Source: a virus
Taxonomy: Duplodnaviria > Caudoviricetes
DNA: 63,263 nucleotides
Direction: 5' to 3' (one strand)
Virus record (IMG/VR): IMGVR_UViG_3300013885_000001
Span: 1-63,263 of that record
How positions within the stretch are numbered: the stretch's first letter is position 1; every line of letters starts with the position of its first letter. The position numbers and the translations under genes were made by a program. Shown piece by piece: positions 11,974 through 63,263 of the stretch. The notes under the pieces were generated by a model. The model was not told where the DNA came from. It saw only the letters and a program-made list of their open reading frames with translations, and made no database searches.

Positions 11974-11993
11974 AGAAAACTCTTAAACAATAT
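11974..11993 (+). promoter_or_regulatory. Conserved viral promoter-like motif
   Basis: AGAAAACTCTTAAACAATAT. Confidence 0.75.
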
Positions 11994-35147: not shown

Positions 35148-35691
35148 GTAGGGCTGAGGAATATCGGGCATCTTTATATGTTGATGTTAAGTTACCGTCT
35201 GGGTTCACATTTAAGGTAAGAAAAGTGGGTCCTCTTGCGGTAGCGAGGATAATGAGTGAGCATAATCTGACTGTTGATCAAATCAATGAGGGATCTATGG
35301 AGTTTAATATAGCTTTTTTAGAGTATGCGGTTGTTGACCCTAAGCTTGTCTCTTCAGATCCTAAAGATGATGAGCTACAGGTTGAAGATCTAACTAATGA
35401 AGATGTTAAGTTCCTTCTTAATAAGATCATAGATATATCAGGGTTGAGCAGTGATAAGAACCCTTTGCAGAAACAGAAATAGGGAGAGCAGTAGCCAATA
35501 TAGCGTTTACCTTTCATCAGAGACCGTCTGATATAATAGATCCACATTATGAAATGACGGATTTTGAACGGCTTATGTTTGATCTTGAGTGCATAAGGAT
35601 TTTAAATCAGGAAACAAAAAGAGCTGAGAAAGGGAGTGTGAGTTTGGAAGAGAAAATTAAAGAGTTGAGAGCGAGAAGGGGAGAGGTATAA
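35144..35691 (+). CDS. Tail assembly chaperone (stop 35482) with -1 frameshift-extended product to 35691
   Basis: In-phase slippery site C CCT TTG at 35461-35467; -1 frame open to a TAA overlapping the TMP ATG. Confidence 0.8.
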
Positions 35692-46894: not shown

Positions 46895-46914
46895 ATATTG
46901 TTTAAGAGTTTTCT
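46895..46914 (-). promoter_or_regulatory. Conserved viral promoter-like motif
   Basis: Reverse complement AGAAAACTCTTAAACAATAT. Confidence 0.75.
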
Positions 46915-47060
46915 TAAGAATCTCACTCCTTCATAACCAATCATATAAGAAGCATAGACGGCATTTAAACGTTAACTAAATAGCCATCTAATGTTTCTAT
47001 ATTAGGATCATATTTACCTTCTCATATTCTCTTTAATTTCATCTAATCCAATCATATTTT

Positions 47061-47798
47061 TCAGTACCCTTCAACTCTTGGAGCTAATAGATACTCTATC
47101 TCACCAAAGTAGTATTTCGATCTCACAGATATAGGCATATCATTACCTAAGTTAATAGTAACAGGTCCTGCATCCCGAAGCCCCTTAACTATATTCACTA
47201 GATAACCAGCATCGAATTTAGATTTAACTTCCATCTTCTTCTTCTTCTCTCCCTCAACAGTAAGCTCCAAGCCATCTTCTTTATCCATCTCATATTCAAC
47301 TTCTGTGAACACCGATGCACTACTTATCTTAAGCTTATCATCCGCAACATGGAAGATTACATCATCACTTACTGAACAGGCTGCATTAACAGCTTCTGTA
47401 AAATCACTCCTCTCCATAGTCACACTTACAGGGAGGTCGAGTGATAATAGTTTCTTTAGTTTTCTTATTGTATCCAGTCTTACTTCACTCAAAGTATACC
47501 TTAACTTACTCTGATAGAATACAATCTTACCATCTAACTTCTCTATTACTATAGGCTCATTCTTCTTAGCATTCTTAACTATATTTGTCACCTGCCTGAG
47601 ATCTACACCAACAGATCCTATTGCTTCATAATCATCAAATGCATCCTTTAAGATGCCTATAGACGCCATACATACATATGCATTATCTATTATTCTCGAT
47701 TGAACACCCTTATCATCACTGTCTATCCTTACTTCATCCGCAAGCCAAGAGACCGCTTTAGTAAATACATCTACTACATTGGCACTAATTCTTAACAT
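47061..47798 (-). CDS. pcn: PCNA sliding clamp
   Basis: 245 aa; SVGVDL, LGNDMPI, EYLLAPRVE. Confidence 0.9.
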   Translation of the reverse strand: MLRISANVVDVFTKAVSWLADEVRIDSDDKGVQSRIIDNAYVCMASIGILKDAFDDYEAIGSVGVDLRQVTNIVKNAKKNEPIVIEKLDGKIVFYQSKLRYTLSEVRLDTIRKLKKLLSLDLPVSVTMERSDFTEAVNAACSVSDDVIFHVADDKLKISSASVFTEVEYEMDKEDGLELTVEGEKKKKMEVKSKFDAGYLVNIVKGLRDAGPVTINLGNDMPISVRSKYYFGEIEYLLAPRVEGY

Positions 47799-48586
47799 CC
47801 AAACACCACCTCCTTACTTAAACATACCTTTGCTTTAAAACCCAAATCCCTCTCGGTTTTAGTTGTATCTGCACACGTTCTATAAACATACTTCTCTATA
47901 GGGTTATCAATATATCTACATCTACAGTCTGTAAGTTTGGCTATCTCATTAAATGATGTCTCAACACCCGTCCCTACATTATACACACCCCGTTTATCAC
48001 TCTCTCCTGCTATGATAAATGCTCTTACTACATCATCCACATGTATAAAATCTCTTGTTTGAGTCCCATCACCATATATCTCAAAGTAGCCTTTCTTCAT
48101 TTGAGTGATAACATTAGCATACTTACCTTTAGCCTCATCTCCACCATACACCGAGAACAGTCTTAAGCAGATGCTATCTAAGTCTTTGGACATCAATTCG
48201 ATGTTATATCTGCTTAGTGTGTAGTAATCAAATGGCTCTACTTTAAATGATTCATTGTTGGGAATGGGACACTTTCTATAAAGAGATGAAGTTGATGCTA
48301 TAACCAATCGAGGATATACGATCTCACAATATTCCTTAATTATGTCAAAATCTCTAATCACCTGACAAAATGAAGTGACATTATGATCCATCATGGGTGC
48401 TGATGACGGCATACCAAGATGGTATATTATATCAAAATGATTTTGTAATGAGCTCAAGACACTCTCAATTGAATTCATCTTTATATCAGCTATCTCAACA
48501 TTATTATCCTTCTTAAGCTCTGATACCAACCTCGAGCCTATAAACCCCAACCCACCTGTAACTAATATGTTTTTACCTCTTAACAT
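47792..48586 (-). CDS. NAD-dependent epimerase/dehydratase
   Basis: TGGLGFIG, YGDGTQTRDFIHVDD, YNVGTG. Confidence 0.9.
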   Translation of the reverse strand: MLRGKNILVTGGLGFIGSRLVSELKKDNNVEIADIKMNSIESVLSSLQNHFDIIYHLGMPSSAPMMDHNVTSFCQVIRDFDIIKEYCEIVYPRLVIASTSSLYRKCPIPNNESFKVEPFDYYTLSRYNIELMSKDLDSICLRLFSVYGGDEAKGKYANVITQMKKGYFEIYGDGTQTRDFIHVDDVVRAFIIAGESDKRGVYNVGTGVETSFNEIAKLTDCRCRYIDNPIEKYVYRTCADTTKTERDLGFKAKVCLSKEVVFGC

Positions 48587-48947
48587 CTCTATTCCTCACA
48601 AGCACAGTTTCATACTTCTCAATCTCACTCAGTAAACTATCTTTATCAACCGCACTTCGTAAGATCTCGTTGTTCTCATCTTTATGCAATATCAGGACTT
48701 TGTTCTCATTATGGTTTAGTATAAACATAGGTGTTCTCACTAATGATAGCAATTTAGCAAATGCCACTTTATCCATCTCTTTAATAGAACAATCATACGG
48801 TAGCCCTAACTCAATGCTTTTTAGGTCTTCTTTTCTATCAGGAAAAACATACTTCCCATTTGGCAGTCTGCTCATGATCTTGCCTCCTTTCTTATAAAAG
48901 TAAAGGATCTCTCTTTTGTTGAATAACTCCTTATTCATATCCTCCAC
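48573..48947 (-). CDS. Hypothetical protein
   Basis: Coupled ORF in the minus-strand operon. Confidence 0.6.
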   Translation of the reverse strand: MEDMNKELFNKREILYFYKKGGKIMSRLPNGKYVFPDRKEDLKSIELGLPYDCSIKEMDKVAFAKLLSLVRTPMFILNHNENKVLILHKDENNEILRSAVDKDSLLSEIEKYETVLVRNRDVKR

Positions 48948-49582
48948 CTAATATCACCTCCTTGTATAATACACTCAACATCCTTAAGATCTCTCTCATA
49001 GATATGTGCTGATACACTTAGTATATTAATACCACCAGACGAAACAGATAGCTCGTTTGCCACATAATCCTGTAATCTTGAAAGTGCATGAACATTATAT
49101 GGATACGCACCATAGAAATCATGTGATCTAAACACTGATGTCATCTCCAAGATTGAATTTCTTAGCTTAAAATCCACCATAATCAAGCAAGGAGATTCAC
49201 TGCTGGTTAAATCTACCTTAGGCATCCAAGTGGTAGCAGTTCCTCTTTTTGATGTTCTGTTATGCTTGAGCTTGTTTATTATTAGTTGTATCTGATCAAC
49301 ATCTCTCCTAAGCCTCTCTCCATATGTATAGATAAATCCCTTATTATCAGGATTTAACAATTGATCCTCATACTCTCTAAGCATTTGATGTCGTAAACTG
49401 GGATACTCGTCATGTGGATATTCAATCCTGGTTGCTAAATTTAATATCTCTCTTATAGTGTATCTTCTATCTCTAACATCCAGCCCATAGTCCATAATAA
49501 GCTTTAGTCCTCTTAACCAAACATCATTCACTGATCGTCCTCTTATAAACCGACCTACCTTATAGGTTACATCCATATTCAT
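48935..49582 (-). CDS. thyA: Thymidylate synthase (archaeal ThyA-like)
   Basis: YTYGERL, PCL, FRSHD..GAYPYN, SAHIYE. Confidence 0.85.
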   Translation of the reverse strand: MNMDVTYKVGRFIRGRSVNDVWLRGLKLIMDYGLDVRDRRYTIREILNLATRIEYPHDEYPSLRHQMLREYEDQLLNPDNKGFIYTYGERLRRDVDQIQLIINKLKHNRTSKRGTATTWMPKVDLTSSESPCLIMVDFKLRNSILEMTSVFRSHDFYGAYPYNVHALSRLQDYVANELSVSSGGINILSVSAHIYERDLKDVECIIQGGDIRWRI

Positions 49583-49736
49583 CCCTCTATTCTTCTGTTA
49601 GTCTATCTAAAGATTCTATATCTTTTTCGATCACTTCCTTCAAGAGTCTAATCGTCTATCACCACTATATCCAGAACAATATTGGAATAAAAATAATAAA
49701 AAGAAAGAAAAATAATGTTTCGTGTGTAGACAACAT

Positions 49737-50036
49737 TTATATCATCTCTCCAAGATCTTCAATATACCTCCTGGCTTGTTCAAGACTTGAAAAAAGTTGA
49801 AACATCTCATCTTTCTTAAACGTAGATCCATCATCCCTGGACTCGACAAACACCACACTATATAAAGGACCGTATCTTTTCGCCTCATAGACTCCCTCAG
49901 TTATCATGTAAGCAGTGTTTCCATTCAGCATCCCAATCTCCACGATATGTAACCTTAGATGGTATATGCATGTCTCTCCAAAGTGTCGATATATTATCTC
50001 CTCAGCTCTTGTTTTCTCAATGTCCAATGCGTTCAT
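49737..50036 (-). CDS. Hypothetical protein
   Basis: GGTGA RBS; followed by a T-rich tract on the minus strand. Confidence 0.6.
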   Translation of the reverse strand: MNALDIEKTRAEEIIYRHFGETCIYHLRLHIVEIGMLNGNTAYMITEGVYEAKRYGPLYSVVFVESRDDGSTFKKDEMFQLFSSLEQARRYIEDLGEMI

Positions 50037-50054
50037 AATGTATCACCCACTGAA

Positions 50055-50276
50055 TTAAGCACACATCATCTCTGTTAGCTGTATAATGTATTCACAAAAT
50101 CCTTTTCCACCAAAGCATACTATGTTGTAGGCTTCAGCCCAAGCGGTTACACTAAAGCAAGTTCCGCACGTTTCCACAAACGTTTGAGCCAATATTCCCA
50201 TAGCATCTTCTCCACTCAAAAGCCTGTCTAAATCCGACTTTAGTCTTCTTAAGAACACTCTTCTCAACTTTGTCAT
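50055..50276 (-). CDS. Hypothetical protein
   Basis: GGAGGTGA RBS. Confidence 0.55.
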   Translation of the reverse strand: MTKLRRVFLRRLKSDLDRLLSGEDAMGILAQTFVETCGTCFSVTAWAEAYNIVCFGGKGFCEYIIQLTEMMCA

Positions 50277-50279
50277 TAT

Positions 50280-50459
50280 TTACTCACCTCCTACTTTTCT
50301 TATTCTACATCTTACACATCTTACCCCACTTAATGACTCTCGCTCTATGGTATTCCAAGAGCAATCTCTTGTTACATACTTAATAACCCACTCTAACTCT
50401 TTGTCACTTATCTCATCAAATACGTGTCTAACACCATCCAAACTTTGTCTGTTATCCAT
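50280..50459 (-). CDS. Small hypothetical protein (start MDNRQ)
   Basis: Start placed downstream of the promoter motif at 50475-50494. Confidence 0.5.
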   Translation of the reverse strand: MDNRQSLDGVRHVFDEISDKELEWVIKYVTRDCSWNTIERESLSGVRCVRCRIRKVGGE

Positions 50460-50474
50460 TTTTACATCCTCCAT

Positions 50475-50494
50475 ACATTGTTTAAGAGTTTTCT
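50475..50494 (-). promoter_or_regulatory. Conserved viral promoter-like motif
   Basis: Reverse complement AGAAAACTCTTAAACAATGT. Confidence 0.72.
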
Positions 50495-50505
50495 TAAACT
50501 TTCCT

Positions 50506-50817
50506 CTAAAGCACCTTATCAATTTCTATGTCTACATCATCCTGATGATAATACCGCTCTAACCATAACAGACAATAACCAACTATATCGGTCAGTGTTT
50601 CACATATGAAATTCTTCTGACTCTCACTTAGATCTTCCATGAGTTTATTCTTATTCCATAGGGTTTTAAGCCTTGCAAATTTATCTGATAACCGAATATA
50701 TATGCCCAGCTCACCATTCTCTATATAAGCATCTCCATATTGTCTGTTTTTCTCTATTACAAGATCTATTATATCTATAGCCACATCATACAATCTACTT
50801 CTATTTACCATTTCCAT
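50506..50817 (-). CDS. DUF1599 / nucleotide-modification-associated helical domain protein
   Basis: KNRQYGDA, IRLSDKFARL, TLTDIVGYCLL. Confidence 0.7.
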   Translation of the reverse strand: MEMVNRSRLYDVAIDIIDLVIEKNRQYGDAYIENGELGIYIRLSDKFARLKTLWNKNKLMEDLSESQKNFICETLTDIVGYCLLWLERYYHQDDVDIEIDKVL

Positions 50818-50859
50818 TCACACACTCCTTTTTGAATATTTAACTAAAGATATGTGATA

Positions 50860-51096
50860 TTACCTCTGTTTCAATCTCTCTGACAACCTCATGATCACTT
50901 GATCTGTAGCAAGTTGAATATGCCTACTTGTTAGGATCTGTTTCCCATCAAACTTGAGTAGTCTAATAGCCTCACTGACAAGCTCGTTTATATACTCTTC
51001 TCCCAATGCAACTAAAAAATCTAAAGCCTCTTTCCGGATGTGATATCCACTTTCCTTAATATTATCATTCAGGACACTTTTTTTAATTACACTCAT
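50860..51096 (-). CDS. Histone-fold protein (78 aa)
   Basis: GGAGGT RBS before ATG 51096; IRKEALDFL...EEYINELVSEAIRLLKFDGKQILTSRHIQLA follows the HMf-type alpha2-L2-alpha3 pattern. Confidence 0.72.
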   Translation of the reverse strand: MSVIKKSVLNDNIKESGYHIRKEALDFLVALGEEYINELVSEAIRLLKFDGKQILTSRHIQLATDQVIMRLSERLKQR

Positions 51097-51112
51097 ATTA
51101 TACCTCCTACTC

Positions 51113-53446
51113 TTAAATACTACAGGTACCACTTTTACAAGACAAATCGAAATCCCAACTAATAGGTTGGTCACGTCTTGAGTTATTTCTATAAATAGTT
51201 ATACCTTTACATCTCATCTTCCAAGCCTTAGTATAGATATCTTTAACTTCATCAACTGTAGCAGATTCATACAGATTGATAGTCTTTGAGACTCCCAGAT
51301 CAACTATTTCTTGTGCTGCTGCCTGTATCTTCAAGTGTTCAATTGCTGGTATCTCAAAAGCTATCCTAAATACCTTTTTCTCATCCTTAGAAAATACGTC
51401 TATATTGGCTATAGAGCTATCCCGTTTGATCTGCTCAATAGTCTCTTGGTCTAAGTCTGGAAACCTCTCTTTAAACACTTGATTTACTTCAATTAAGACC
51501 GATCCGTCTAATATCCTTCTCTCATACATCCAACCAAAAGGTGGCTCAATTCCTGATGTGCAATTACAGATGGTACTTAATGTGCCAGTGGGTGCAATAG
51601 ACATCAGGTTAGCATTTGATCTACCATTATACACCTTAGGATATTCCAGATTACACGATATCTCATGTGCTTCATCTCGGATTATGCTCAGTAGTCTTCT
51701 TAACTCTCTTACTGATTCATCAGAACCATAGACTAAGTTATGTTTCAGACAATAGTCTCCAAATCCCATAACACCGATACCTATCTTCCTGAACCGTTTC
51801 ATGGCACGTTGTAGTTCTTTGTATGGCAATCTGTTCTTATCTATTATCCTATTAAGTAACAATGTCATGACCGATGCACTCTCTCTCAGCTGATCATCAT
51901 TTTCATATTTAGCTAAATTCAATGATCCTAAGTTACAGCTTTCCCACGGTAATAATGGACTTTCACCACAGTTTTTAGTGAGCACCAAATGTCGATTACC
52001 TATAAAGTCTGCATCAGATACGATGTAGTAGTTATGAGTCCCAGATACAGTCATATTATAAACATCCTCTTTTCTATTTCCGCTTATTACATGCTTAACT
52101 TTATAGTAAATGTTGTCGTCTCCCTTCAGATAATCTCCACTAACCAACTCTTTAGCCTCTTTCAATTGTCCATTCTTCAGATAGAACTTATGATCAGGTG
52201 TGACTGTAAATACTGCATAATTAGTCAATACAACTTTAACAACGGATGTATTCTCTCTTGTTTTTCTGATATTATAAGCTCTATGATAGGCATCTTTACC
52301 GGTCACATAGTTATGAGATAAGACCCAGACATCCTCCTCACTAACAAGATCCTTAATTTTCTTATATCCTTGAGTGGTTTTAATCAGAGTATTCCCACTT
52401 ACACAAGGATTGGTCATGGTGATGGGTTTATCTCCAACATAATTATCCTCGTTTATTCTATCATAAAATAGCATGCCCGGATCTCCACTCTTCCACGCCT
52501 CATAGCATATCAGATTAAAGATCTGTTGTGCCTTGACTTTTCTAACTACTCCCTTAGAATGTGGTGATATAAGATTAACATAGTCATTATCTTCAAGCGC
52601 ATACATAAAGTTATTATCCACCATCACTGAGAAGTTAAAAGATGATACATTCTCATTCTCTTTCATTATGATGAAGTCAAGTATATCGGGATGCGTATAG
52701 TTTAAACAAGCCATATTAGCTCCTCTTCTTCTACCACCTTGTTTAATCTCTGTAGTTGCTGCATTATAAATCCTAATCCACGATAGCAAACCAGATGATC
52801 CTTGAGATGATCCACTTATAGGTGCATCCTTTTCTCTCAGATTTGAAAAATCAAATCCAGTTCCTCCTCCATATTTGTGGATTACAACAGCCTTCTTTAA
52901 GGTTTCAAATATACCCTCTAAGGAGTCTTCAACAGGCAAACAGAAACACGCTGAATATAGATGCATTGGAGTCCCTGCGTTTGCTAATGCGGGTGAGTTT
53001 GGTAATCCTCGCATTTCTACAAACAAATTATAAAATAATTCTTGCTCCCTCTTATTAGTCCCAAAGTATCTTGATACTCTCCTTAACATGCCTAAGGGTG
53101 TCTCATCACCATATAAACAACGTTCCTTTAAGACCTGTAGTGCATTCTTAGATATACCCCAATCGTCTAAAACAGGAAACTGTTGTGATTCTCTCTTCTG
53201 CATCCTATACAGTATAAATTTCTTAGCTGTGTTATAACACCCAAATTCCATAAGCACCTTCTCAATGGTATCTCCTATTATATTAGTATCCAAGTTATCT
53301 CCCTTATCCCGCAATATTTCCATAACCCGATCAAAACAACCATCTTTTTCTTGCTCTCCAGATGCCGCAAACGCTTTAGATATAGATGCTCTTATCTTCT
53401 TAGGATTTAGATCCTCAAACTTATTACTTCTCTTTCTAACTTTCAT
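51113..53446 (-). CDS. nrdJ: Class II (B12) ribonucleotide reductase with ATP cone and intein
   Basis: PNSP, SACF, QGGRRRGANM, TNP/CGE, SIAPTGT, VSKTIN. Confidence 0.92.
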   Translation of the reverse strand: MKVRKRSNKFEDLNPKKIRASISKAFAASGEQEKDGCFDRVMEILRDKGDNLDTNIIGDTIEKVLMEFGCYNTAKKFILYRMQKRESQQFPVLDDWGISKNALQVLKERCLYGDETPLGMLRRVSRYFGTNKREQELFYNLFVEMRGLPNSPALANAGTPMHLYSACFCLPVEDSLEGIFETLKKAVVIHKYGGGTGFDFSNLREKDAPISGSSQGSSGLLSWIRIYNAATTEIKQGGRRRGANMACLNYTHPDILDFIIMKENENVSSFNFSVMVDNNFMYALEDNDYVNLISPHSKGVVRKVKAQQIFNLICYEAWKSGDPGMLFYDRINEDNYVGDKPITMTNPCVSGNTLIKTTQGYKKIKDLVSEEDVWVLSHNYVTGKDAYHRAYNIRKTRENTSVVKVVLTNYAVFTVTPDHKFYLKNGQLKEAKELVSGDYLKGDDNIYYKVKHVISGNRKEDVYNMTVSGTHNYYIVSDADFIGNRHLVLTKNCGESPLLPWESCNLGSLNLAKYENDDQLRESASVMTLLLNRIIDKNRLPYKELQRAMKRFRKIGIGVMGFGDYCLKHNLVYGSDESVRELRRLLSIIRDEAHEISCNLEYPKVYNGRSNANLMSIAPTGTLSTICNCTSGIEPPFGWMYERRILDGSVLIEVNQVFKERFPDLDQETIEQIKRDSSIANIDVFSKDEKKVFRIAFEIPAIEHLKIQAAAQEIVDLGVSKTINLYESATVDEVKDIYTKAWKMRCKGITIYRNNSRRDQPISWDFDLSCKSGTCSI
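51971..52405 (-). mobile_element. Mini-intein (145 aa) without endonuclease
   Basis: Starts CVSGNTLI; VTPDHKF; VYNMTV..THNY; ends TKN followed by the catalytic Cys. Confidence 0.9.
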
Positions 53447-53479
53447 TTGTTATCACCTCCTCAACACTTGTACATCTTC

Positions 53480-54109
53480 CTATTCACGATAAACTATATT
53501 ACCTGCCTCTTCTATTGCCTTCTGTTTGGTTAAACAAGCTACGCACTCACCACAAGGTCTTTCTTGATCCTTAATACAATCCCATGTCTCATCGATAGGC
53601 ACACCCAACATCAAGGCTTCTCTTGCTATTTCCGTTTTATTGAGATAGATGAATGGTGCATCAATTCTTATGAGATTGCCATTCACTCCGCTCTGAGTTC
53701 CAAACCTTATTGTGGTACCAAACGATTGAATAAATTCCAAACGACAATCAACATACCTATTATAATCAGTAAGATTAGCTCCATAACTAACAGTTTCTGC
53801 ACCTACCCGATTAGCGTATGCTATACCGTATGATAGAAATATAAGTTGCTTTCCCTCAAACGCACCATAGCTTAAACTTGTATCCGACCTATGATCTACA
53901 ATTTTATCAAGATTAAGCTCAATAAGTTGGTGCTCCTTCACTCCCAACATCTCGCCTATCTTCATGGCTGCTTCTAACTTTCTCTTGTTTTCTCGTCCAT
54001 ACCTGAACGTCAGTGCATAGATATCCTTTTGCTCTTTGTGTTTCAAATAATATGCTAATGTGCTACTATCTAAGCCTCCCGATAGAAGTACTATAGCTCG
54101 TTTGTTCAT
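53480..54109 (-). CDS. queC: QueC-like PP-loop ATPase (7-cyano-7-deazaguanine synthase family), divergent
   Basis: LLSGGLDS, YVDCR.EF, TWDC...CGECVAC. Confidence 0.8.
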   Translation of the reverse strand: MNKRAIVLLSGGLDSSTLAYYLKHKEQKDIYALTFRYGRENKRKLEAAMKIGEMLGVKEHQLIELNLDKIVDHRSDTSLSYGAFEGKQLIFLSYGIAYANRVGAETVSYGANLTDYNRYVDCRLEFIQSFGTTIRFGTQSGVNGNLIRIDAPFIYLNKTEIAREALMLGVPIDETWDCIKDQERPCGECVACLTKQKAIEEAGNIVYRE

Positions 54110-54124
54110 TTTATCATCTCCATA

Positions 54125-54144
54125 TTACTATTTAAGAGGTTTCT
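54125..54144 (-). promoter_or_regulatory. Variant of the conserved promoter motif upstream of queC
   Basis: Reverse complement AGAAACCTCTTAAATAGTAA. Confidence 0.6.
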
Positions 54145-54148
54145 AAAT

Positions 54149-54844
54149 TTATACATAGACCAGCGATGGAAGATTGTCACATATCCTTACGAACCCGGGT
54201 ACCTGCATTGGATAAGTTGATGATACCTTAAGATACTCAATTTTAGATATATCGAATAGACCTCCTGACTCAATGATAAAGTGTTTACCACTTGCATCCT
54301 TGCTAAGTGATAATCTATGTTGATGTGCTGCCACCACGTTCATCCTATACTTTTCTGCTAATCTTTTAGATACTGACAATGGAACGAATGAGTAGTTTTT
54401 CGGATGGCATATATACCAGCTGTCATTGAGAACACAGTGATCATAGTTAGTTACCTTATAGTCTTCATCCTCGTTTAGTTCACCTCTGAAGAGGCTTATA
54501 AGATCAGATAGATCATTCTCTCCACCAAGTTTAGATAAAAATCTATCCTCGTGGTTGCCTCTTAGAAAATATATATTCTTAAAGACTGATAATGAGGTTA
54601 ACACCCGATTAGCTTGTTCCAACTCACGTTTAAATGTAAGCTCTCTATATTCAAAATTTAAAAAGTCCGTCATTTTAAAACAATCCAAGAAATCTCCTGC
54701 TATTATCAGATCAGTTATATTATGTTTTTTAGCCATATCCAAAAGTTTCTGTATATGTCTCTGGCTGTGGAATGGCACATGATAATCTGAAGATACGATT
54801 ACATCACTGGCATAGATCCTTAACTCTTTTCTTAGCATCTTCAC
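54149..54844 (-). CDS. Calcineurin-like metallophosphoesterase
   Basis: SDYH, GDFLD, GNHE, AHQH. Confidence 0.88.
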   Translation of the reverse strand: MKMLRKELRIYASDVIVSSDYHVPFHSQRHIQKLLDMAKKHNITDLIIAGDFLDCFKMTDFLNFEYRELTFKRELEQANRVLTSLSVFKNIYFLRGNHEDRFLSKLGGENDLSDLISLFRGELNEDEDYKVTNYDHCVLNDSWYICHPKNYSFVPLSVSKRLAEKYRMNVVAAHQHRLSLSKDASGKHFIIESGGLFDISKIEYLKVSSTYPMQVPGFVRICDNLPSLVYV

Positions 54845-54995
54845 CTCTCCGCAAATGATATATTTTACGCTCTATAGATTTAGGACTTCTCAACAGTATT
54901 CTACCTATATCTTTATAAGGGACATTATACGCTTTCAATATTTTCAAACACTCAACTTCGTGTTCAGTCCACCTCTCAAACTGTCTGAAGTTCAT
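54804..54995 (-). CDS. Small Myb/HTH-like DNA-binding protein
   Basis: WTEHE...YKDIGRILLRSPKSI. Confidence 0.6.
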   Translation of the reverse strand: MNFRQFERWTEHEVECLKILKAYNVPYKDIGRILLRSPKSIERKIYHLRRGEDAKKRVKDLCQ

Positions 54996-54998
54996 TTT

Positions 54999-56999
54999 TT
55001 ACATATCCTCCATAAACTCAAAGTCATCTAACGACAGAGTAATAAGATCTTTCACACGTGAGATACTTCTCTCACATGTTTTATCATAATCTATTTTGTA
55101 TCCGTCTAATTTAGACAGATCTTTAGGCAAAGCAAGTATATCAGTGTATGGCACTCCAGAAGGACAACTCTTAACATATACTAACATTCCTAAATCCTCA
55201 TATTCAGTCTCGCCTATATACCTGTGTGTATATTCCAGAGCCCTTGCAGCTTGAGTTTTAACTCTATATGCCTTATCTAAGCGTATCTTTCTGGGAAATG
55301 CAATATAATGTAGAGGATGCTCCTTAATCATAGCTAACTGCCTACTAACATTAGCTGCAATCTCCCGTTTCTTTAACCCATTCAACAGACCCTTTATGAC
55401 ATCAAACTCTATATCTTTCTGTAGATTTGAAGTATCACCTCTCACTATACCCATACCCTTAATAACATATTTGTCGGGTTCATTAAACAGCACATATTGT
55501 TTCTTAGTTTTGATAAACACCTTCTCCCAAAGTCCTTTGAACTCAACTCTAAATTTATCCACAAAGTTAAACTCACTGACATAGTCGTTTAGGATATCAT
55601 CTATGAACAGCCCAGACTTTTTGTCTGGATCATCCGATACAAACACAGAGTCCGTGTCTGCATAAACGATATTAAACCCTCTATCTTCTAAACCTGATTT
55701 TAGATACTGTATTACACTCCTACCAATTGAAGTTATCGACTCAGCTATTGTTCTGTTGTATATACGAGAGTTGACAAACCCAAATTGACCATATATTGCA
55801 TTGATAACTGATGTCTTTAAGGCTTCTTGTTGGATATAGTATCTTCTATCTCCAGTCTCCTTGTATTTCTTTTTTAATATCATTCTTTCTGAGATTAGCT
55901 CTTTTAGGATTTTAGGTATTATTCCAAACGGTTTACTCTTGAACCTAATACCATTCTCTAACAATATGTCTCCTGATGCATCAAACGTCTCAAGTGATAT
56001 ATTAGATGCTATGATAATTGTAGGATACAGAGCTGTGAAATCCCAAATAGCTACATTCTCGTATCTGCCGGGATTGGCATAGACATATGCTCCCTCGTAT
56101 TTCCCACCATTATTACGCCATTTACAAGTTCTTAGAACATACCCCGATCGGTTAAACGATCTTAGTAAAATTATATCATCAAAAGTAGATGAGCTTAAGG
56201 TATCTTTTATTAGGCATCTGCCTATGCTTGCCAGATACGTAAAGTAAAACATTATCTCAAATTTCTCATCAAGAAGCTTTATAATCTCAGTATCTCGTCT
56301 ATTATACTCCTCCAGCTCTTCCTTACTAAGATCTTCAGGGTGTCTTGGACCTAAATCTATCTTCTCACTGTCTACCAGTTTTGCCACAGTGGATAGCTTA
56401 AAGTTGCTGATGGGATCAGTCCATATCTTACGAAACATCGTGAGTAAATCAAGATACTCGATGCTCATTGGAATACTAAAGTTTTTTCTCTGAAGTATCT
56501 TATAGTCCCATTCACTCCAAGATGTGATAATATCATACCCAACTATAAACGAATCGAATTCACTAAGTATCTCTTTCTCCTTTGAAGCACAATACATTTC
56601 CCTACCATCATTTGTCATAGCTGACAACGCTATAATATTATCCTTCCTATCAGCCTCGATATCGAAGTATACTACTCTTGGTTCTATAAATAACTCATCC
56701 TCAAGGACATCAATTAAGATCCTCCGATCGAACGGGATATCTCCTTCATAGGTATGTTTAAATTGCTTTCTAAGCTTTCTAACTTTTGTTAGATCTTCTA
56801 CAACTACCTTCCTAATAGTACTCCGCTCTCTCAGAGTGCCACCTCTTCGATCATCTACGTAGAAATAAGGCTTGATCTTATTAGAATACCACACCTCTTT
56901 TTCATCATCTTCATTTCGTCCAAAGAACATCATCATAGGAGTTCTACCATACCCAGATGAATAAACTTGCCCATCTATCTCAGGTGTTAGCTCTTTCAT
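54999..56999 (-). CDS. polB: Family B DNA polymerase
   Basis: FDIE, YNRRD, DFTALYPT, INAIYG, YADTDS. Confidence 0.94.
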   Translation of the reverse strand: MKELTPEIDGQVYSSGYGRTPMMMFFGRNEDDEKEVWYSNKIKPYFYVDDRRGGTLRERSTIRKVVVEDLTKVRKLRKQFKHTYEGDIPFDRRILIDVLEDELFIEPRVVYFDIEADRKDNIIALSAMTNDGREMYCASKEKEILSEFDSFIVGYDIITSWSEWDYKILQRKNFSIPMSIEYLDLLTMFRKIWTDPISNFKLSTVAKLVDSEKIDLGPRHPEDLSKEELEEYNRRDTEIIKLLDEKFEIMFYFTYLASIGRCLIKDTLSSSTFDDIILLRSFNRSGYVLRTCKWRNNGGKYEGAYVYANPGRYENVAIWDFTALYPTIIIASNISLETFDASGDILLENGIRFKSKPFGIIPKILKELISERMILKKKYKETGDRRYYIQQEALKTSVINAIYGQFGFVNSRIYNRTIAESITSIGRSVIQYLKSGLEDRGFNIVYADTDSVFVSDDPDKKSGLFIDDILNDYVSEFNFVDKFRVEFKGLWEKVFIKTKKQYVLFNEPDKYVIKGMGIVRGDTSNLQKDIEFDVIKGLLNGLKKREIAANVSRQLAMIKEHPLHYIAFPRKIRLDKAYRVKTQAARALEYTHRYIGETEYEDLGMLVYVKSCPSGVPYTDILALPKDLSKLDGYKIDYDKTCERSISRVKDLITLSLDDFEFMEDM

Positions 57000-57858
57000 T
57001 TATCTTGCCCCGTCGACAATCTATACATAAGTTATATTTCTTAAGTGTTTTACATCGAGGGAGGATATACTTCCCATTTCTTATATGCTTAATCTGATAC
57101 CATACTATCTTAGGGTTCCAATCCACCCAACCCTTCTTCTCCAAGTCTCTAAATATCTGCAGATCAGAGTATCCCTCGATTATCTTGTAGATCACGTAAA
57201 AGACTCTTGCTAAATGAGGTGGCTCATCTTCCTTAATGAAATGATCTAAACATGGATAGGTATGAAGCTCTGATATACGCATATCCAAGATATTAGTTGA
57301 CTCATTAAATTTAACTTTATCAAAGTACGTAGCATCATTCTCCCAGAGCAAGAGATCCAATTGAGGAGTTTGGTTTTCAGTCCTAAATATCTCTTTACAT
57401 AATTTGCCATTCTTCTCATTGATGGTTCCAGGTATTCTCATCAATCTCTTTACATCTCCAACAATATGCGGATCTGCTGATTTCAATCTCAGCCCATCTA
57501 TGATATCCCGTTGAAACTTGAACAGGTCTTTATCAGTATAATGATGTTCAACCACCCTTAAATATACGTGATAGCCATTACCAGAAAAAATCACTCTGTA
57601 TGTTAGCCCATTCAAATCAAAAAATCTACATAACTTTGAGACATCATGCTTAGCGTTCGACCCGTCAAGATCAAATGGCACATAAGTTAAATATGGTTCC
57701 TGATCATACTGACAAACACTTATAAAGCATGGATTAATACCATTATTCTCTTCAATAAGCGTCTCAAGTCGTTGCATCGAATAGACTTTTACCTGATAGG
57801 GATTTCCAAACATTCTATAACTCCCTTTATCAATCGTCACCAAGTCCATCCATCTCAT
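56980..57858 (-). CDS. Archaeo-eukaryotic primase with C-terminal Cys-containing (PriL/PriX-like) domain
   Basis: FDLD, SGNGYHVY, RLMRIPGTIN; C-terminal PC...PRC...CIDC. Confidence 0.85.
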   Translation of the reverse strand: MRWMDLVTIDKGSYRMFGNPYQVKVYSMQRLETLIEENNGINPCFISVCQYDQEPYLTYVPFDLDGSNAKHDVSKLCRFFDLNGLTYRVIFSGNGYHVYLRVVEHHYTDKDLFKFQRDIIDGLRLKSADPHIVGDVKRLMRIPGTINEKNGKLCKEIFRTENQTPQLDLLLWENDATYFDKVKFNESTNILDMRISELHTYPCLDHFIKEDEPPHLARVFYVIYKIIEGYSDLQIFRDLEKKGWVDWNPKIVWYQIKHIRNGKYILPRCKTLKKYNLCIDCRRGKINERANT

Positions 57859-57968
57859 CCCACAACCGATACTTTCTTCCTGCCATGCTCTTCACCTATC
57901 CATTAACTACCACTTTCTTAATCATCCCTAAACATTGAGACCATAGAAGAGACTACAATCTATAGATG

Positions 57969-58574
57969 TCATTCATTATAGAACTCATATATGTTCTTAG
58001 ATGTCTTCTTCCCTAAACCCTCATTCATTAGATCGTCAACAGTTGCATTGGCTATATTCTTGATTGTTCCAAATTTACTCAGTAACATCTCTGCCCTCTT
58101 AAATGATACACCTCTTATACAACTTAATGAGGCATGCCTTAGATACTTGATATCCCGACCTTTCCTGATGGGAAGTGAGGGAGTGGATGGTGTCTCTTTA
58201 CGCTTATCAATGAATTTTAGATATTCAATAAATTCGTCATCATCATAGAAATACATCAGTGGTAACTTATACTTTAAGATAAGAGATCGGACTATTCCGA
58301 AATATACATTCTTATTCTTCTTAATACCTGATAAATAGAGTGCCTTCCAGATATTACCAGTGATCGCTATTATGCTATTGTAGTCTGTTTGATTCTTAAG
58401 CTCATAGGCTTGTAGCCACAATCTACCATCAAGTAATGATGTAACAAGATCTTTTGCCGTCTTCCGCTCATACAACTCATTCCCTACTATGTAATCTCCC
58501 ACCTTCAACTCATCCAGTTTAGCATCTGCAAATTTGTCCCGTATTTCCTTAGGCTCTCTTTTATCTATGATCAT
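57969..58574 (-). CDS. ERCC4/XPF-family nuclease with HhH domain
   Basis: IDKRE, GDY, ERKT..DL, GRLWLQ; IRGVS...GLGKK. Confidence 0.9.
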   Translation of the reverse strand: MIIDKREPKEIRDKFADAKLDELKVGDYIVGNELYERKTAKDLVTSLLDGRLWLQAYELKNQTDYNSIIAITGNIWKALYLSGIKKNKNVYFGIVRSLILKYKLPLMYFYDDDEFIEYLKFIDKRKETPSTPSLPIRKGRDIKYLRHASLSCIRGVSFKRAEMLLSKFGTIKNIANATVDDLMNEGLGKKTSKNIYEFYNE

Positions 58575-59368
58575 TCTAAGTCAGCATAACCATAGTCTTC
58601 TTTGATCATTACAGGCTTGAACTCAGATTCCATGCTACCAGTCCATCTGTATCTTTGTACTCTCCTGCCACGCATGCCAACCTTATCAAACAGAGGTTTA
58701 TCTGCTTTCTTAAGAAGGATGAGATATTTAGAAAGATACATAAGAACAGGACCACCAAATGGATTCTGTTTATCAGCAAAAGCTATTGGATTTACTGATG
58801 CATGATGAGTTAGAATAAATGTATTACCATACTCCTCCATACACTCAGTCATTGCACCGAATAGTTGAGTTTCAATTATACTTCTCGCTCCTAAATTCTG
58901 TGGCTCCATTACCATCGTTAATTTAATCATCTCACTGAATGAATCTAAGACTATCAGGTCATACTTAGAAAGATCCTCTCGAGTCCATTCACCATTAGTC
59001 TTCCGTTCCTTGATCTCCTTGCTTTTCATATCTCGTATCTGGATAGATATCTTATCTTTACTCTTATCAAGATCAATATAGATATTGAGCATAGCTCCAA
59101 ATGCTTGACTGTTCAAGACCTTACAATAGTCTGGTATCTTGTCAACTTTAAATCTATCAAGAAATATCTTAGCAATTTTGTCAGAGTCATACTCAGAGGG
59201 TGTTGTAATATGCAAACATTTCTTACCATCGTGGATAGCGTTCATCATAACTTGAGTGGCTAATAGAGACTTACCAGTATTAGGGAGAGCAAAAATCCCA
59301 GAGACTCTTTGCTCTGGGAAGCCTCCAAATATTAATTCATCAATAGTTTTAACATCAGTTGCATACAT
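58571..59368 (-). CDS. RecA-superfamily (RadA/RadB-like) ATPase
   Basis: IDELIFGGFP, PNTGKS, LIVLDS. Confidence 0.8.
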   Translation of the reverse strand: MYATDVKTIDELIFGGFPEQRVSGIFALPNTGKSLLATQVMMNAIHDGKKCLHITTPSEYDSDKIAKIFLDRFKVDKIPDYCKVLNSQAFGAMLNIYIDLDKSKDKISIQIRDMKSKEIKERKTNGEWTREDLSKYDLIVLDSFSEMIKLTMVMEPQNLGARSIIETQLFGAMTECMEEYGNTFILTHHASVNPIAFADKQNPFGGPVLMYLSKYLILLKKADKPLFDKVGMRGRRVQRYRWTGSMESEFKPVMIKEDYGYADLE

Positions 59369-59386
59369 ATAGCACCTTACACCTCC

Positions 59387-60067
59387 TTACTCTTCTCCTT
59401 TATTATCATCCAATTCTGTATCATCGAATTCTATCTCATCTTCTCCCGATCCTACGTCAGTCATATTGTCCTTCTTATAGATCAATCTATCCTGTCTCAC
59501 CTCAATCCGCCTCATATTCCTGGCAACCTTATCAAACTGCTCCGATGTAATCTTAAATACATTTCGTATTATGTTTCTGACATCTGATAGAGATGCCTCT
59601 CCACCATTTGCTCTCACCATAGATTCTATTTCCATCTGGATATCAGCTACTTTCCTCTGAGGTAAGTCTCGGGACAAGTCAGAACGTGGCTTAGCAGATT
59701 TTCGAGATCCAGCAAATCCCTCAAATCTCACTGTCCAATCATACATGCTATCCCGTTGAATTGTGAATATAGGTTGTTTGTTCTCAAGATCATCTAAAGA
59801 TATATTCCTTATAGCCATCTCTTTCTTTAATGCCCGTCGAAGTCCTAACTGACCTATTAGTAACTTCCTTTCTTCATTAGGCACTATATTAATTTCCGCT
59901 AACCACTGATTCCATCTTACTTCATCTCCAATTGGATTTTCCTCACCTTTCTGATAGAGCCAGAACCCTGTAAGGAACTTTATACATGCTTTTTGTCCCT
60001 CTTTTAAAGATACATATGAACCGAAGTCCATACTATCCCATTCTGCCTGAGTCATTTTTCTTGGCAT
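59387..60067 (-). CDS. Hypothetical protein, possibly ssDNA-binding, with acidic tail
   Basis: First gene of the replication operon; acidic C-terminus. Confidence 0.5.
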   Translation of the reverse strand: MPRKMTQAEWDSMDFGSYVSLKEGQKACIKFLTGFWLYQKGEENPIGDEVRWNQWLAEINIVPNEERKLLIGQLGLRRALKKEMAIRNISLDDLENKQPIFTIQRDSMYDWTVRFEGFAGSRKSAKPRSDLSRDLPQRKVADIQMEIESMVRANGGEASLSDVRNIIRNVFKITSEQFDKVARNMRRIEVRQDRLIYKKDNMTDVGSGEDEIEFDDTELDDNKGEE

Positions 60068-60096: not shown

Positions 60097-60116
60097 TAAT
60101 TGTTTAAGAGTTTTCT
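60097..60116 (-). promoter_or_regulatory. Conserved promoter motif ahead of the replication operon
   Basis: Reverse complement AGAAAACTCTTAAACAATTA. Confidence 0.75.
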
Positions 60117-60248
60117 AAACGATTGTGGGTTTCAGTCTTTTTACTGATACATCCTCCTCAATATACATTTAAGAGTTACATAAAAATAATAAGCTTTAAA
60201 TATCATAAGAGTTTAATAAACCATCATTCATTCAGGAGAGGTGATGTA

Positions 60249-60812
60249 ATGAGAACTAATATTTCCAAGATAGAGAAGTTGGGTGTGGAGAACTATGTCA
60301 TCACACTAAGACATGAGGGATACTCATTCAGAGAGATAGCTGAGAAGGTGAATGAGATAATCCCTGATGCCAATCTGTCTACAGATAACGTCGCTAAGTT
60401 TATCAAGTCTCACCCACATTTGAATAAAATGTCTTCAGGTGAAGTGGTTACTTACAAAGTACTCAATAATATGAGACAGATTCTTGATAAGATATGGCAA
60501 CTTGAGGCTGAGGCTGAACAGTTTTTGAAAAAAGCTAAGGAGACTGAAGATAGAAGATCGATGGTGTCTGCTATCAGAGCTTGTAATGAAGTACTAAGAA
60601 CGTGTCTTGCTGTAGCCAGAGAGTTGAAGGCACCATCCGAAACTCTTAAGGTAGATGTTAGACATCAAACGATAAACTATATGATAAACATTATAAACCA
60701 GTTGCCTAAGGATTCTCAGATGATTTTAAGAAAGCAGATAGAAGAGATATATGAGAGAGAGTTAAGCCAGTCTAAAGAGGATATAGAAGATGGTGAAAAA
60801 GAAAACAATTAG
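60249..60812 (+). CDS. HTH plus helical protein, candidate terminase small subunit or regulator
   Basis: GAGGTGA RBS before ATG 60249; GYSFREIAEKV. Confidence 0.55.
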   Translation: MRTNISKIEKLGVENYVITLRHEGYSFREIAEKVNEIIPDANLSTDNVAKFIKSHPHLNKMSSGEVVTYKVLNNMRQILDKIWQLEAEAEQFLKKAKETEDRRSMVSAIRACNEVLRTCLAVARELKAPSETLKVDVRHQTINYMINIINQLPKDSQMILRKQIEEIYERELSQSKEDIEDGEKENN

Positions 60813-60848: not shown

Positions 60849-61433
60849 TTATTTATTGCGACCACTCTCTTCAATTGCCTGTCTCTTCTTTCTTTTCTTC
60901 TGAAATCTAACTTCAATATTATGCTTTCTAAGATGCCTTAACACAGTAGGACTCGTGCAACCAATCATCTCCGCAATTTCAGTGCTTGATTTTCTTTTGT
61001 TTATGTATTGATCATATAACCAGTCTCTATCTCTTAGCAATCTTAAATCAGAATTCTTACTATACCAGTTGAGATAACATGTTTCTTGTCTGACTCTTGT
61101 CATGATGCCAAACTTCTTCATGTTGTCGTTTATCCTTGCCTTTGTGGTGTGGGTAATCTGTTTGATTTTACCGAGAGATACTTTTTCTTCTTCATATTTC
61201 TTACGTAGCCATTCTTCATCCTCAACTAATGTATTGTTTGGATATTTCTTACTAAGCCATAGATGTATTCTCTCCTTGTGGTTTCTTGTTGGAATTTTAA
61301 ATCTCTTTATGGCTCTTATTAATGCCTTGTCACTGCAACCTATTAAGTCAGCCATCTCCCTCGCATTTAGTTTTTCTTCTACATATTTCTGCGTTAGCCA
61401 CTCTTTATCATATAGGAGACTGTGGTTATCCAT
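60849..61433 (-). CDS. Protein with three tandem HTH repeats
   Basis: Three units of the form D.EWL...Y.....S..EIA..IGC. Confidence 0.75.
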   Translation of the reverse strand: MDNHSLLYDKEWLTQKYVEEKLNAREMADLIGCSDKALIRAIKRFKIPTRNHKERIHLWLSKKYPNNTLVEDEEWLRKKYEEEKVSLGKIKQITHTTKARINDNMKKFGIMTRVRQETCYLNWYSKNSDLRLLRDRDWLYDQYINKRKSSTEIAEMIGCTSPTVLRHLRKHNIEVRFQKKRKKRQAIEESGRNK

Positions 61434-61458
61434 GATATCACCTCATTAGACTCCTCAT

Positions 61459-61538
61459 ATATTGTTTAATAGTTTCCTTAAGATTTAGTGTTAGTAGTAT
61501 CCGATAGTGATAAATTTTAGAAAACTCTTAAATAATAT
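61459..61538. promoter_or_regulatory. Back-to-back divergent copies of the promoter motif
   Basis: Minus copy 61459-61478 (AGGAAACTATTAAACAATAT); plus copy 61519-61538 (AGAAAACTCTTAAATAATAT). Confidence 0.7.
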
Positions 61539-61926
61539 ATGAGGGAGTGTAGATTAAACCCATCTTCAAATTGATGAAGTGGGAAGGATCCTCCCTGTAT
61601 ATGAGCATCCTATTTGAGGTGAGATGCCTACGTAGTAGTTAGAGGATAGGGTGTGATAAAGCCGCTGGGACTGAGGATGAGTCATAACTTGGGAACATAG
61701 GACTAATACCTTGACCCTTATCAGACCGCCTGTGAAGTCTGTCAGTGTTATACGACTCAGGGGATATTCCATTTTTTGTTTTTTTATGATCGGGAATGTT
61801 GCCCTGGGAGCCACTGACTGATGGACTGGCAACGTCTCTGACCAGAGACTTGAGATGCCTCTGGTGTGCTCTCCGTTGTCAGGGTCAGAGGTCACCTTTC
61901 TCTATAGTGGCTGCCTCTCTCATATA
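61536..61926 (+). ncRNA. Candidate structured non-coding RNA of unknown class
   Basis: Promoter motif, no credible ORF, raised GC, many nested helices with G-U-compatible mismatches. Confidence 0.55.
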
Positions 61927-62059
61927 AGACTAGACTATCTACAAATTCAGTAAATTCAGGTGTAAGAGTAGAAGTAAAATTAAACCAAAATCAACTGATG
62001 AAACTACTCAAAATGAAAAGTAAATAGTGTATAGTATGAATAGAATGTATGATATTAAA

Positions 62060-63160
62060 GGGTTTCACTCTATATAGATATAATCAGATATCAGTATAAT
62101 ATATAGAGGCGAGTAGGGTCTATATATGATATATATAATTGACAGAAACTATATATGGTCAGTAGTTCTATATATGACTATATAAGATCCATAGATCTAT
62201 ATATGAATATATATGGACTGTAGATCTATATATGACTCTATAGACACTATAGTTCTATATAGTTGGATAGGAGTTTATATAGACATACAGATCATATATA
62301 GACATCTGTATGTTTAGGAGGAAATATATAGACATACTGACGTCTATATATCAGGATATAGTCTATATATTTTAAGGAGAATATCTATAGTACTCTATAT
62401 AACTGAGGATGTCTATATAGGAAGTGATAGTCTATATATTTCCGAGTGAGTTTCTATAGTATCAGTAGGTCTATATAGAGTTGGTGGTGTCTATATATCT
62501 TACAGTATGAGTAAGTAAGATATAGAGACAACCACACTGATATATAGATGCTTGTAGTCTATATGAGTGGAAGTAGATCTATATATTTTCAGATGAATGT
62601 CCTTACTAATATATAGAGACTGATATCCATACATATGATGAGTAGATCTATATATCTCTAAACAGTAGTCCATACTGATACGGATTTCAGACAGTATCTA
62701 TATAGTTGAGAGTGAATGTCAGTAGTTTCTATATGTTGATATGGATCTATATATCTGTATCTTACTCTATGTAGTAGTCTATATCACTATGGATCTTAGG
62801 GAATATCTATATAATTAAGGTGGATGTCAGTAGGTCTCTATATATCATAGGAAGATTATATATGAGTGACACTCTCTATATAGACATAAGGAGAAGAAAG
62901 TAAATTCTATATAGACTAAACTTAAGATCAGTAACATACTTAAATCTAAGAGTCGTTATATAGAGACTAACTAACATATATAATCTGGAGCAGTGGTGGG
63001 TATCTCTATATAACAAGTAATAATCTATATACACCCATTGAGATCTCTATATACCAACATATACAAGGAGCATATCTACATACTCTCTGTAGTAGTAGCA
63101 TCAACAAACACTCAGTTAATACATCAACTGTTAGAGTGACTATAGAGACTAATATATAAT
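62060..63160. repeat. Dispersed array of TCTATATA/TATATAGA motifs
   Basis: Roughly 35-40 copies by eye, both orientations, unique spacers, no ORF. Confidence 0.85.
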
Positions 63161-63184
63161 GAATTAGTATCCTCGTGAAAAAAG

Positions 63185-63263
63185 CCTTAGTTTGAAATTT
63201 ATAAATTGAAAGTTAGTATCATTTTATTTTTTTATTAAATTTAAGCTTTTTTATTTTTTTATT
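63185..63263. repeat. Terminal redundancy, right copy
   Basis: Identical to 1..79. Confidence 0.95.

Follow-up and report, generated by a model that had tools for sequence, protein, structure and literature searches.

The IMG/VR record IMGVR_UViG_3300013885_000001 is the complete genome of a tailed archaeal virus (Duplodnaviria; Caudoviricetes), and all 63,263 bases of it form the window analysed here. The genome has only one large gene-free gap, of 2,049 bp (61434–63184 plus 1–298), which parts a minus-strand replication block on the left from a plus-strand block on the right and is occupied by a kilobase-long array of the 8-bp word TCTATATA. Here we describe the sites of this array, which keep a single helical register, and weigh what the array may do; a docking part in a replication origin is the reading that we tentatively favour. 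The array consists of the following elements.

62069–63053, both strands: core array, holding 35 of the 39 exact TCTATATA matches of the window (24 of 27 forward, 11 of 12 reverse)
62128–63083: 11 more sites, separate from these, each with one mismatch (for example ACTATATA, TCTATATG, TCTATATC and TCTATAGA)
62148–62261, plus strand: four tandem units of about 29 bp, 71–82% alike, each with a strong and a weaker site

The 39 matches, counted on both strands of the 63,263-base window, compare with 10.24 ± 3.69 expected from dinucleotide shuffles, none of 100 of which reached 39. The density of the word outside the array predicts 0.06 copies per 985 bp, which corresponds to an enrichment of about 550-fold. 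The original prediction had put the array at roughly 35–40 copies in both orientations with unique spacers, and this holds: the spacers are unique, and the 35 matches represent 31 distinct sites, because four are the full palindrome TCTATATAGA and are counted on both strands. From left to right the orientations of the 31 sites read P-+++++---+++++P+-+-+++++PP-+++, where P is a palindromic site. The word is, as had been proposed, one base from the archaeal TATA box TTTATATA, and its position 2 is a C in 35 of 35 exact array copies. In an alignment of the sites no flanking position exceeds 0.38 bit, so that information is confined to the 8-bp core, the core values being partly given by construction because the site set was picked by TCTATA. 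No open reading frame (ORF) of more than 57 aa overlaps the array. The stretch at 62148–62261 grew by tandem duplication, and in its units the 8-bp core is still exact while the remainder has drifted. The array is unchanged in contigs from two DNA runs of one study; a 2,168-nt contig from those runs spans 62057–63263 and extends 961 nt beyond the end of the window.

The array had been called semi-phased, with starts at 62167, 62196, 62225 and 62254 exactly 29 bp apart and spacings near 19–20, 30 or 40 bp between 62343 and 62490. These values are correct (the latter differences are 19, 32, 18, 19, 39 and 20), and the phasing proved to be stronger than claimed. With the centre of the TATATA hexamer taken as the position of each site, the 30 gaps between neighbours fall into classes of 18–22 bp (10 gaps), 29–32 bp (9), 38–39 bp (4), 48–50 bp (6) and 60 bp (1), with none between the classes. 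The gaps are quantised with a peak at 9.9 bp (R = 0.82), a value as high as which was seen in none of 20,000 null sets obtained by jittering the gaps by −5 to +4 bp or by drawing them uniformly from 18–60 bp, and the quantisation persists without the three tandem 29-bp gaps. Moreover, all 31 centres lie on a single 9.86-bp lattice that runs over 977 bp, or about 100 lattice points (R = 0.72; residuals within ±2.9 bp; p = 0.0002 against random placement in 5,000 trials), and the two halves of the array give periods of 9.79 and 9.92 bp. The one-mismatch sites occupy empty lattice points, giving a set of 42 sites in all, 41 of which are within ±3.2 bp of the lattice and one at −3.8 bp.

The register also indicates what the unit of the array is. 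Eight neighbouring pairs of sites have opposite orientations, and these share a phase (R = 0.93; mean residual 0.08 bp) only if the TATATA centre serves as the reference point; moving that point by 1 bp lowers their R to about 0.3. This arrangement points to one recognised, nearly symmetric core, and the sites act like a core CTAT|ATA(G) bordered on a single side by a strict TC. Among the 497 spacer bases, A/T, G, T and A are all without a 9.86-bp periodicity (p = 0.2–0.8). Since the spacers are unique and non-periodic, it is the sites and their spacing that are kept, and the phasing together with the aperiodic spacers identifies the array as discrete, sequence-specific sites in one helical register and not as a general bendability track. 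Free B-DNA has a period of 10.5 bp. The shorter period of 9.86 bp means that in relaxed DNA the sites would spiral slowly, by about one turn per 160 bp, which fits DNA that is wrapped on, or twisted by, a protein assembly. To hold a single register for about 100 turns is uncommon, even by comparison with the iteron and centromere arrays known so far, and, read from the sites themselves, would imply a very large ordered protein–DNA assembly.

The remainder of the gap holds further elements on either side of the array.

61459–61480, minus strand: copy of a promoter-like motif with 3 mismatches, divergent, upstream of the gene for a protein with three helix-turn-helix (HTH) modules
61517–61538, plus strand: copy of the same motif that points to the array and is followed by a stretch of 47.6% G+C and the T-run at 61774
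61774–61787, plus strand: single T-run 14-mer, TTTTGTTTTTTTAT, resembling the first half of the 27-mer below
63185–63263: exact 79-bp end overlap, identical to window positions 1–79 (IMG/VR class: direct terminal repeats)
38–141, plus strand: 27-bp tandem repeat TTTTATTTTTTTATTAAATTTAAGCTT, 3.9 copies, 6.7% G+C

No other DNA of this genome is as rich in A+T as the TTTTATTTTTTTATTAAATTTAAGCTT repeat, which reaches 93% AT over the 100 bp that start at position 44. It begins 168 bp past the last exact array site, with a repeat start also at 63222–63263, and is a candidate DNA unwinding element; its T-runs could instead be archaeal terminators. Because TTTTGTTTTTTTAT lies on the left and the repeat on the right, the array has a T-rich word on both flanks. 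The end overlap, by which the first and last 79 bases of the record are identical, starts 38 bp past the last degenerate array site and shows that the genome is circular, permuted or terminally redundant. The promoter-like motif, a 22-mer of the form TTAGAAAACTCTTAAACAATAT, has seven copies with at most three mismatches, against 0.01 expected in shuffles; those outside the gap are at 2523–2544, 11972–11993, 46895–46916 (minus), 50475–50496 (minus) and 60097–60118 (minus). Each copy lies directly upstream of a gene or start codon, sometimes with the start codon immediately after it, and the motif is probably a virus-specific promoter class. The promoter-like boxes of the virus are TTTATATA, TTTATAAA or TTTAAATA. 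An 18-nt probe made from it to find relatives gave seven single matches, probably by chance.

The stretch that follows the promoter-like copy at 61517 stands apart in composition: 61541–61920 has 47.6% G+C against 36.6% for the genome, and contains the T-run and a 109-aa minus-strand frame that belongs to no family. RNA folding after this promoter was not convincing (z = +0.21 over 250 nt and −2.2 over 390 nt), and 61541–61920 has no Rfam match; the stretch may represent a small RNA not yet recognised, or a remnant of foreign DNA. Across the whole window no Rfam family reached its gathering threshold, 61300–63263 giving only miRNA and snoRNA rows at chance level, and no tRNA genes were found.

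The plus strand of the genome carries a tailed-virus morphogenesis set, and the minus strand, at 47061–60067, an archaeal-type replication block. The genes that matter for the readings below are as follows.

299–2467, plus strand: N4/N6 DNA methylase, split by an intein; first gene to the right of the gap
13804–14229, plus strand: terS-like HTH protein
14165–15538, plus strand: TerL, with a Walker A motif
15619–16788, plus strand: portal
plus strand, in the morphogenesis set: prohead protease
31976–32947, plus strand: major capsid protein
35691–38579, plus strand: tape measure protein
50860–51174, minus strand: histone-fold protein, 104 aa (Pfam CBFD_NFYB_HMF, E = 4.4e-6, about 45 residues covered)
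51113–53446, minus strand: ribonucleotide reductase large subunit, split by an intein
53480–54109, minus strand: QueC, in the replication block
54999–56999, minus strand: PolB, a family B polymerase
minus strand, in the replication block: PCNA and thymidylate synthase
minus strand, in the replication block: primase-like protein, 292 aa
minus strand, in the replication block: ERCC4/XPF nuclease and RadA/KaiC-like ATPase
59387–60067, minus strand: OB-like protein, 226 aa; last gene of the replication block
60249–60812, plus strand: ORFan, 187 aa, without relatives in the search
60849–61433, minus strand: three-HTH protein, 194 aa, with three tandem HTH modules; nearest gene to the left of the array

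A ligase gene is encoded in addition to the RadA-like and XPF-like genes. Pfam searches covered 59 of the 76 listed ORFs and one extra frame, the other 17 ORFs all being of 148 aa or less; in the scanned ORFs it gave no match to Orc1/Cdc6, MCM, Rep or DnaA-like families, or to ParA, integrase, TBP or TFB families. Walker A motifs are confined to TerL, the RadA-like ATPase and the methylase/intein ORF. The histone announced in the original prediction is indeed encoded, as a histone-fold protein whose Pfam match covers the family profile in part only and whose look-alikes in the protein atlas score 0.88 at most.

The genome has two inteins, one in the N4/N6 methylase and one in the ribonucleotide reductase large subunit. 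The methylase is part of a large DNA-methylation island (299–11850 and 16852–17472) that also holds HsdM, a DUF1156 methylase, a Dam-class methylase and a 1,054-aa HsdS-like protein with five stretches of the specificity domain; a restriction subunit was not recognised in this island. QueC suggests 7-deazaguanine chemistry as well.

The original prediction had offered four readings: an origin or packaging iteron field, a centromere-like site, a histone-positioning track and a sponge for host TBP. The first of these, taken as an origin, fits best, with the divergent gap, replication genes and AT-rich DNA about 170 bp off, and the other three are weakened by the evidence given below. We therefore regard the array, tentatively, as the initiator or architectural docking part of a replication-origin region. 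What favours an origin-associated docking array is that phased sites, the most meltable DNA and replication genes come together where two gene blocks diverge, which is the layout of an iteron origin. The array is highly enriched, holds one register, is built of discrete sites and lies next to AT-rich DNA by the replication genes at the divergence of the blocks; from this anatomy we infer protein binding, the nature of the binder and a start of replication at the array. A sequence-specific DNA-binding protein, viral or host, would bind the 8-bp TCTATATA, with the TATATA hexamer as its effective centre, and fill about 31 strong and about 11 weaker sites. Because all sites are on one 9.86-bp lattice, the bound proteins would be ranged along the same side of the helix, or would have the DNA wrapped around them, to give a kilobase-long nucleoprotein complex. 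Stress or contacts within this complex may help to open the neighbouring 27-bp repeats, where synthesis could then be started by the primase-like protein, PolB, PCNA and the neighbouring protein that resembles single-stranded-DNA-binding proteins. So many sites could also titrate the binder and in this way control copy number.

We compared the array with the iteron origins of phage lambda (ori with the O protein) and of the P1, R6K, RK2 and pSC101 plasmids. Such origins have short helically phased sites beside an A+T-rich opening region and near replication genes, as here; phasing to the helical repeat is the rule and its disturbance can inactivate the origin, and binding opens the adjoining A+T-rich region (PMC5043065). 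Repeated short sites, helical phasing and an adjacent A+T-rich region are all present here, the opening itself being predicted. An iteron origin also has a replicon-specific initiator, encoded close by, which binds its repeats; the genes next to this array are those of the three-HTH protein and the HTH-like ORFan. Unlike iteron origins, the array has 31–42 sites over 1 kb, an 8-bp word in place of one of about 19–22 bp, mixed orientations about a symmetric centre and steps that vary from 2 to 6 helical turns, and it belongs to a virus of an archaeal host in whose scanned ORFs no Rep-type initiator gene was found. The DnaA-box clusters of bacterial oriC have short asymmetric boxes in both orientations, whose spacing and helical phasing matter for the higher-order complex that opens a nearby AT-rich element (PMC5043065). 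The array differs from them in its word and in a much higher site density and long-range register, and no DnaA homologue was found in the scanned ORFs. The oriC of Streptomyces has 19 DnaA boxes. Archaeal origins have an AT-rich unwinding element flanked by repeats, and those of the Orc1/Cdc6–origin recognition box (ORB) type share with the array an AT-rich unwinding element and adjoining repeats (PMC5333045). They differ from it in their initiator, no orc1/cdc6 gene having been found by Pfam in the scanned ORFs. ORBs are longer and fewer than the sites of the array, and we take TCTATATA to be unlike an ORB.

We then considered the gene products next to the array as possible binders. The three-HTH protein lacks a nuclease domain, and its modules correspond to those with which phage HNH endonucleases bind DNA (phrog_8446, E = 2e-27, three stretches). 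A search of 5.8 billion proteins gave only three relatives (E = 4e-23 to 5e-6), all with HNH domains, and their longest contigs match none of those of the relatives of PolB. A scan of IMG/VR with this protein found 13 loci at 26–55% identity, none with a cluster of the 8-mer; its link to the array is adjacency alone. The frame at 26909–27523 was rejected as a paralogue of it on comparison. Relatives of both proteins occur in four IMG/VR loci, L003–L006 (51–56% identity to 26909–27523 and 31–56% to 60849–61433); the two lie 34 kb apart here. For the 187-aa ORFan, a single-sequence model of low confidence (predicted local distance difference test (pLDDT) 67) has an N-terminal HTH-like bundle followed by long helices, and a fold search returned nothing below E = 0.18. 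Small terminases were listed for it no higher than ranks 30 and 33, with E = 0.69, and this does not count as evidence that it is one. The model of the OB-like protein (pLDDT 78) combines a beta-rich N-domain and a helical C-domain with an acidic tail; its fold matches are weak leads (best E = 0.011 or worse) that include the single-stranded-DNA-binding OB folds PrgE and PRD1 P12. It has eight relatives, and we read it as a probable replication protein, not an initiator. When four neighbours were searched by sequence against the PDB, no hit fell below E = 0.06, and the one lead consists of four weak PriS rows for the primase-like protein of 292 aa.

PolB has nine relatives in the protein database at 44–50% identity. 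An alignment of its clade gave relatives of no more than 34% identity in IMG/VR, with no full-length match above 29%, and no match in JGI metagenome contigs or GTDB genome contigs; scanning IMG/VR with the RadA-like or the OB-like protein singly brought up no relatives, and neither did a four-sequence OB-like family alignment. A distant relative, G001 (63,851 bp, complete), has nine proteins in common with the window at 24–47% identity, among them PolB, the primase-like protein, the RadA-like protein and XPF at 25–27%, and its OB-like relative sits directly after the RadA-like gene. At the equivalent junction, between a minus-strand replication block and terS/terL, G001 has a 1.8-kb gene-free gap. 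It holds five AT-rich 20-mers and, within 241 bp (record 23074–23315), four of the five CTATAG words of that genome, three of them as GCTATAG. This is a weak hint that a CTAT/ATAG-type word may mark this junction in the wider group.

A pattern of three TCTATATA copies occurs in at least 118 IMG/VR stretches; the 17 densest cluster loci among the matches listed (4–15 sites within 1.2 kb) are not unique-spacer lattices, having mostly regular, tandem-like spacing with exact periods of 8–54 bp, mainly in AT-rich contigs, several of which are labelled GVMAG. A 22-copy GTTCAAC cluster, in a contig that we take to be from a giant virus (L187), has a regular spacing of 9, 12 or 18 bp and looks like a coding tandem repeat. 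A second genome, G002 (55,840 bp), has PolB, RadA-like and XPF proteins at 25–29% identity and seven weaker matches. The words AGATAGA (176 copies), AGAGATA (165) and ATAGAGA (164) are spread over its whole record; we tentatively put these TAGA-type words down to AGA/ATA/GAT codon usage.

Several observations weigh against the origin. A search for similar arrays in relatives had been proposed, and a dense array is absent from G001, which gives no support for its conservation. The missing Pfam matches to Orc1/Cdc6, MCM, Rep and DnaA-like families leave the scanned ORFs without a recognised initiator, and the three-HTH protein may, judging from its relatives, be a nuclease-less (decayed or domesticated) remnant of a homing endonuclease and not the binder. 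GC skew, proposed as a check, changes sign near 46.5 kb and 60 kb; these are also the points at which gene orientation switches, and because of this coincidence the skew gives no independent support for an origin. The T-runs on both flanks of the array could equally be transcription terminators. Because RadA-like, XPF-like and ligase genes are present, recombination-driven replication without a fixed origin is possible. Finally, the 31 to 42 sites far exceed those of textbook iteron origins, which have 4 to 9.

An alternative that we consider unlikely is that the array is a packaging or genome-end element, either a field of sites recognised by the small terminase (pac or cos-like) or an array that serves concatemer processing next to a true terminal repeat; an oligomeric terminase would contact the phased sites with the DNA wrapped around it. 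Pac sites contain phased short boxes, and the terminal repeat of T7 has short-repeat arrays alongside. Consistent with such an element, the end overlap, classed by IMG/VR as direct terminal repeats, begins close to the last degenerate site, and the equivalent gap of G001 is immediately upstream of a small-terminase-like HTH gene overlapping terL. Terminase recognition sites are located at or by terS/terL and at the physical ends or the first cut. In the window, however, terS-like and terL are 13.8 kb from the array; a 79-bp overlap ending in a tandem repeat is what an assembler produces for any circular or permuted genome; and the 123-bp end overlap of G001 itself is about 22 kb from its gap.

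The array could also be a device for host takeover or for chromatin, an amplified TATA-like lattice that drains host TBP or nucleates a wrapped filament of the viral histone-fold protein. We hold this distinctly unlikely, and neither mechanism is described for any archaeal virus in what was available of the literature matches listed. As a sink or regulatory hub, the TATA-like boxes would sequester host TBP, or else a regulator of viral or host origin, and thereby turn off transcription in the host or set the timing of the divergent early promoters at 61459–61538. The word resembles the archaeal TATA box TTTATATA, which is likewise 8 bp long with a nearly symmetric TATATA centre and differs at one position, and phasing on that centre is expected of a nearly symmetric minor-groove binder. 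Two copies of the promoter-like motif lie about 530–610 bp to the left of the array, T-runs insulate it on both sides, and the number of genome copies times 31–42 sites would make a large sink. But a TBP sink should use the best box, and the C at position 2 is invariant here, whereas the virus's own boxes are TTTATATA, TTTATAAA or TTTAAATA and only one TTTATATA occurs in the array. Unlike archaeal TATA boxes, which have a purine-rich B recognition element (BRE) immediately upstream and a transcribed gene some 25 nt downstream, the sites are too dense for independent promoters, carry no BRE-like information upstream (0.38 bit at most) and have no ORF downstream; TBP and TFB genes were not found in the scanned ORFs, and no such device in archaeal viruses appears in the literature matches listed, as far as their text was available. 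The sink is improbable on these grounds.

As a site of chromatin nucleation, the array would seat the viral histone-fold protein or host histones on phased, flexible TATATA steps, and the wrapping would serve compaction, protection or remodelling of the origin. TA steps are flexible, the virus encodes a histone-fold protein, and a lattice below 10.5 bp is as expected of DNA wrapped on protein. Against this, the spacers, empty lattice points included, are without 9.86-bp periodicity, whereas a nucleosome-positioning tract alternates A/T and G/C composition at about 10 bp all along its length. Gaps of about 20 bp are as common as those of about 30 bp, there is one of 60 bp, and the gap classes show no preference for multiples of 30, so that the 30-bp dimer step on which the histone-track proposal was built is missing. 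The strict TC before TATATA is base-specific, and histones are not expected to read bases; the histone-fold match is also partial, with protein-atlas scores below 0.9. We judge this quite improbable.

It is highly doubtful that the array is a centromere-like site for partition in a plasmid-like carrier state, to which a small adaptor would bind as in ParR–parC or TubR–tubC. Such centromeres are typified by short phased repeats on which a long, one-sided complex is built, and HTH genes adjoin the array. The plasmid centromeres R1 parC–ParR, TP228 parH–ParG and pBtoxis tubC–TubR have phased short, partly degenerate repeats with AT-rich spacers and form a long one-sided or wrapped complex (PMC2241845, PMC3130281), R1 parC having two sets of five iterons (PMC2241845). 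The array, in contrast, is about ten times longer. No ParA, ParM or TubZ-type NTPase was found in the scanned ORFs or in the Walker A survey, and there are no integrase or plasmid-maintenance genes, and the genes are those to be expected of a lytic tailed virus. A functionless expansion of a short repeat, whether selfish or neutral, would accord with the recent tandem duplication at 62148–62261 and with the lack of a dense array in the distant relative, but is very improbable, as decay would erode cores and spacing alike whereas here exact cores stand among unrelated spacers in one register over about 100 turns.

Phased arrays of binding sites at origins and centromeres are already known. New here are 31–42 sites that keep one register over about 100 turns, an 8-bp TATA-like word, mixed orientation around a symmetric centre, and the occurrence of such an array in a tailed archaeal virus without a recognisable initiator. 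Among the literature matches listed, in the parts that were available, we found no published description of such an array, and no mapped origin or cis-acting control region in tailed archaeal viruses with their own PolB, PCNA and primase. With one 8-bp word on a 9.86-bp lattice, the array is a short, synthesisable target with which to fish out the protein, viral or host, that reads it, and it allows a test of how an archaeal virus starts or controls the copying of its DNA. If the binder should prove to be TBP or the viral histone, the array would exemplify a novel means by which viruses seize control of archaeal cells.

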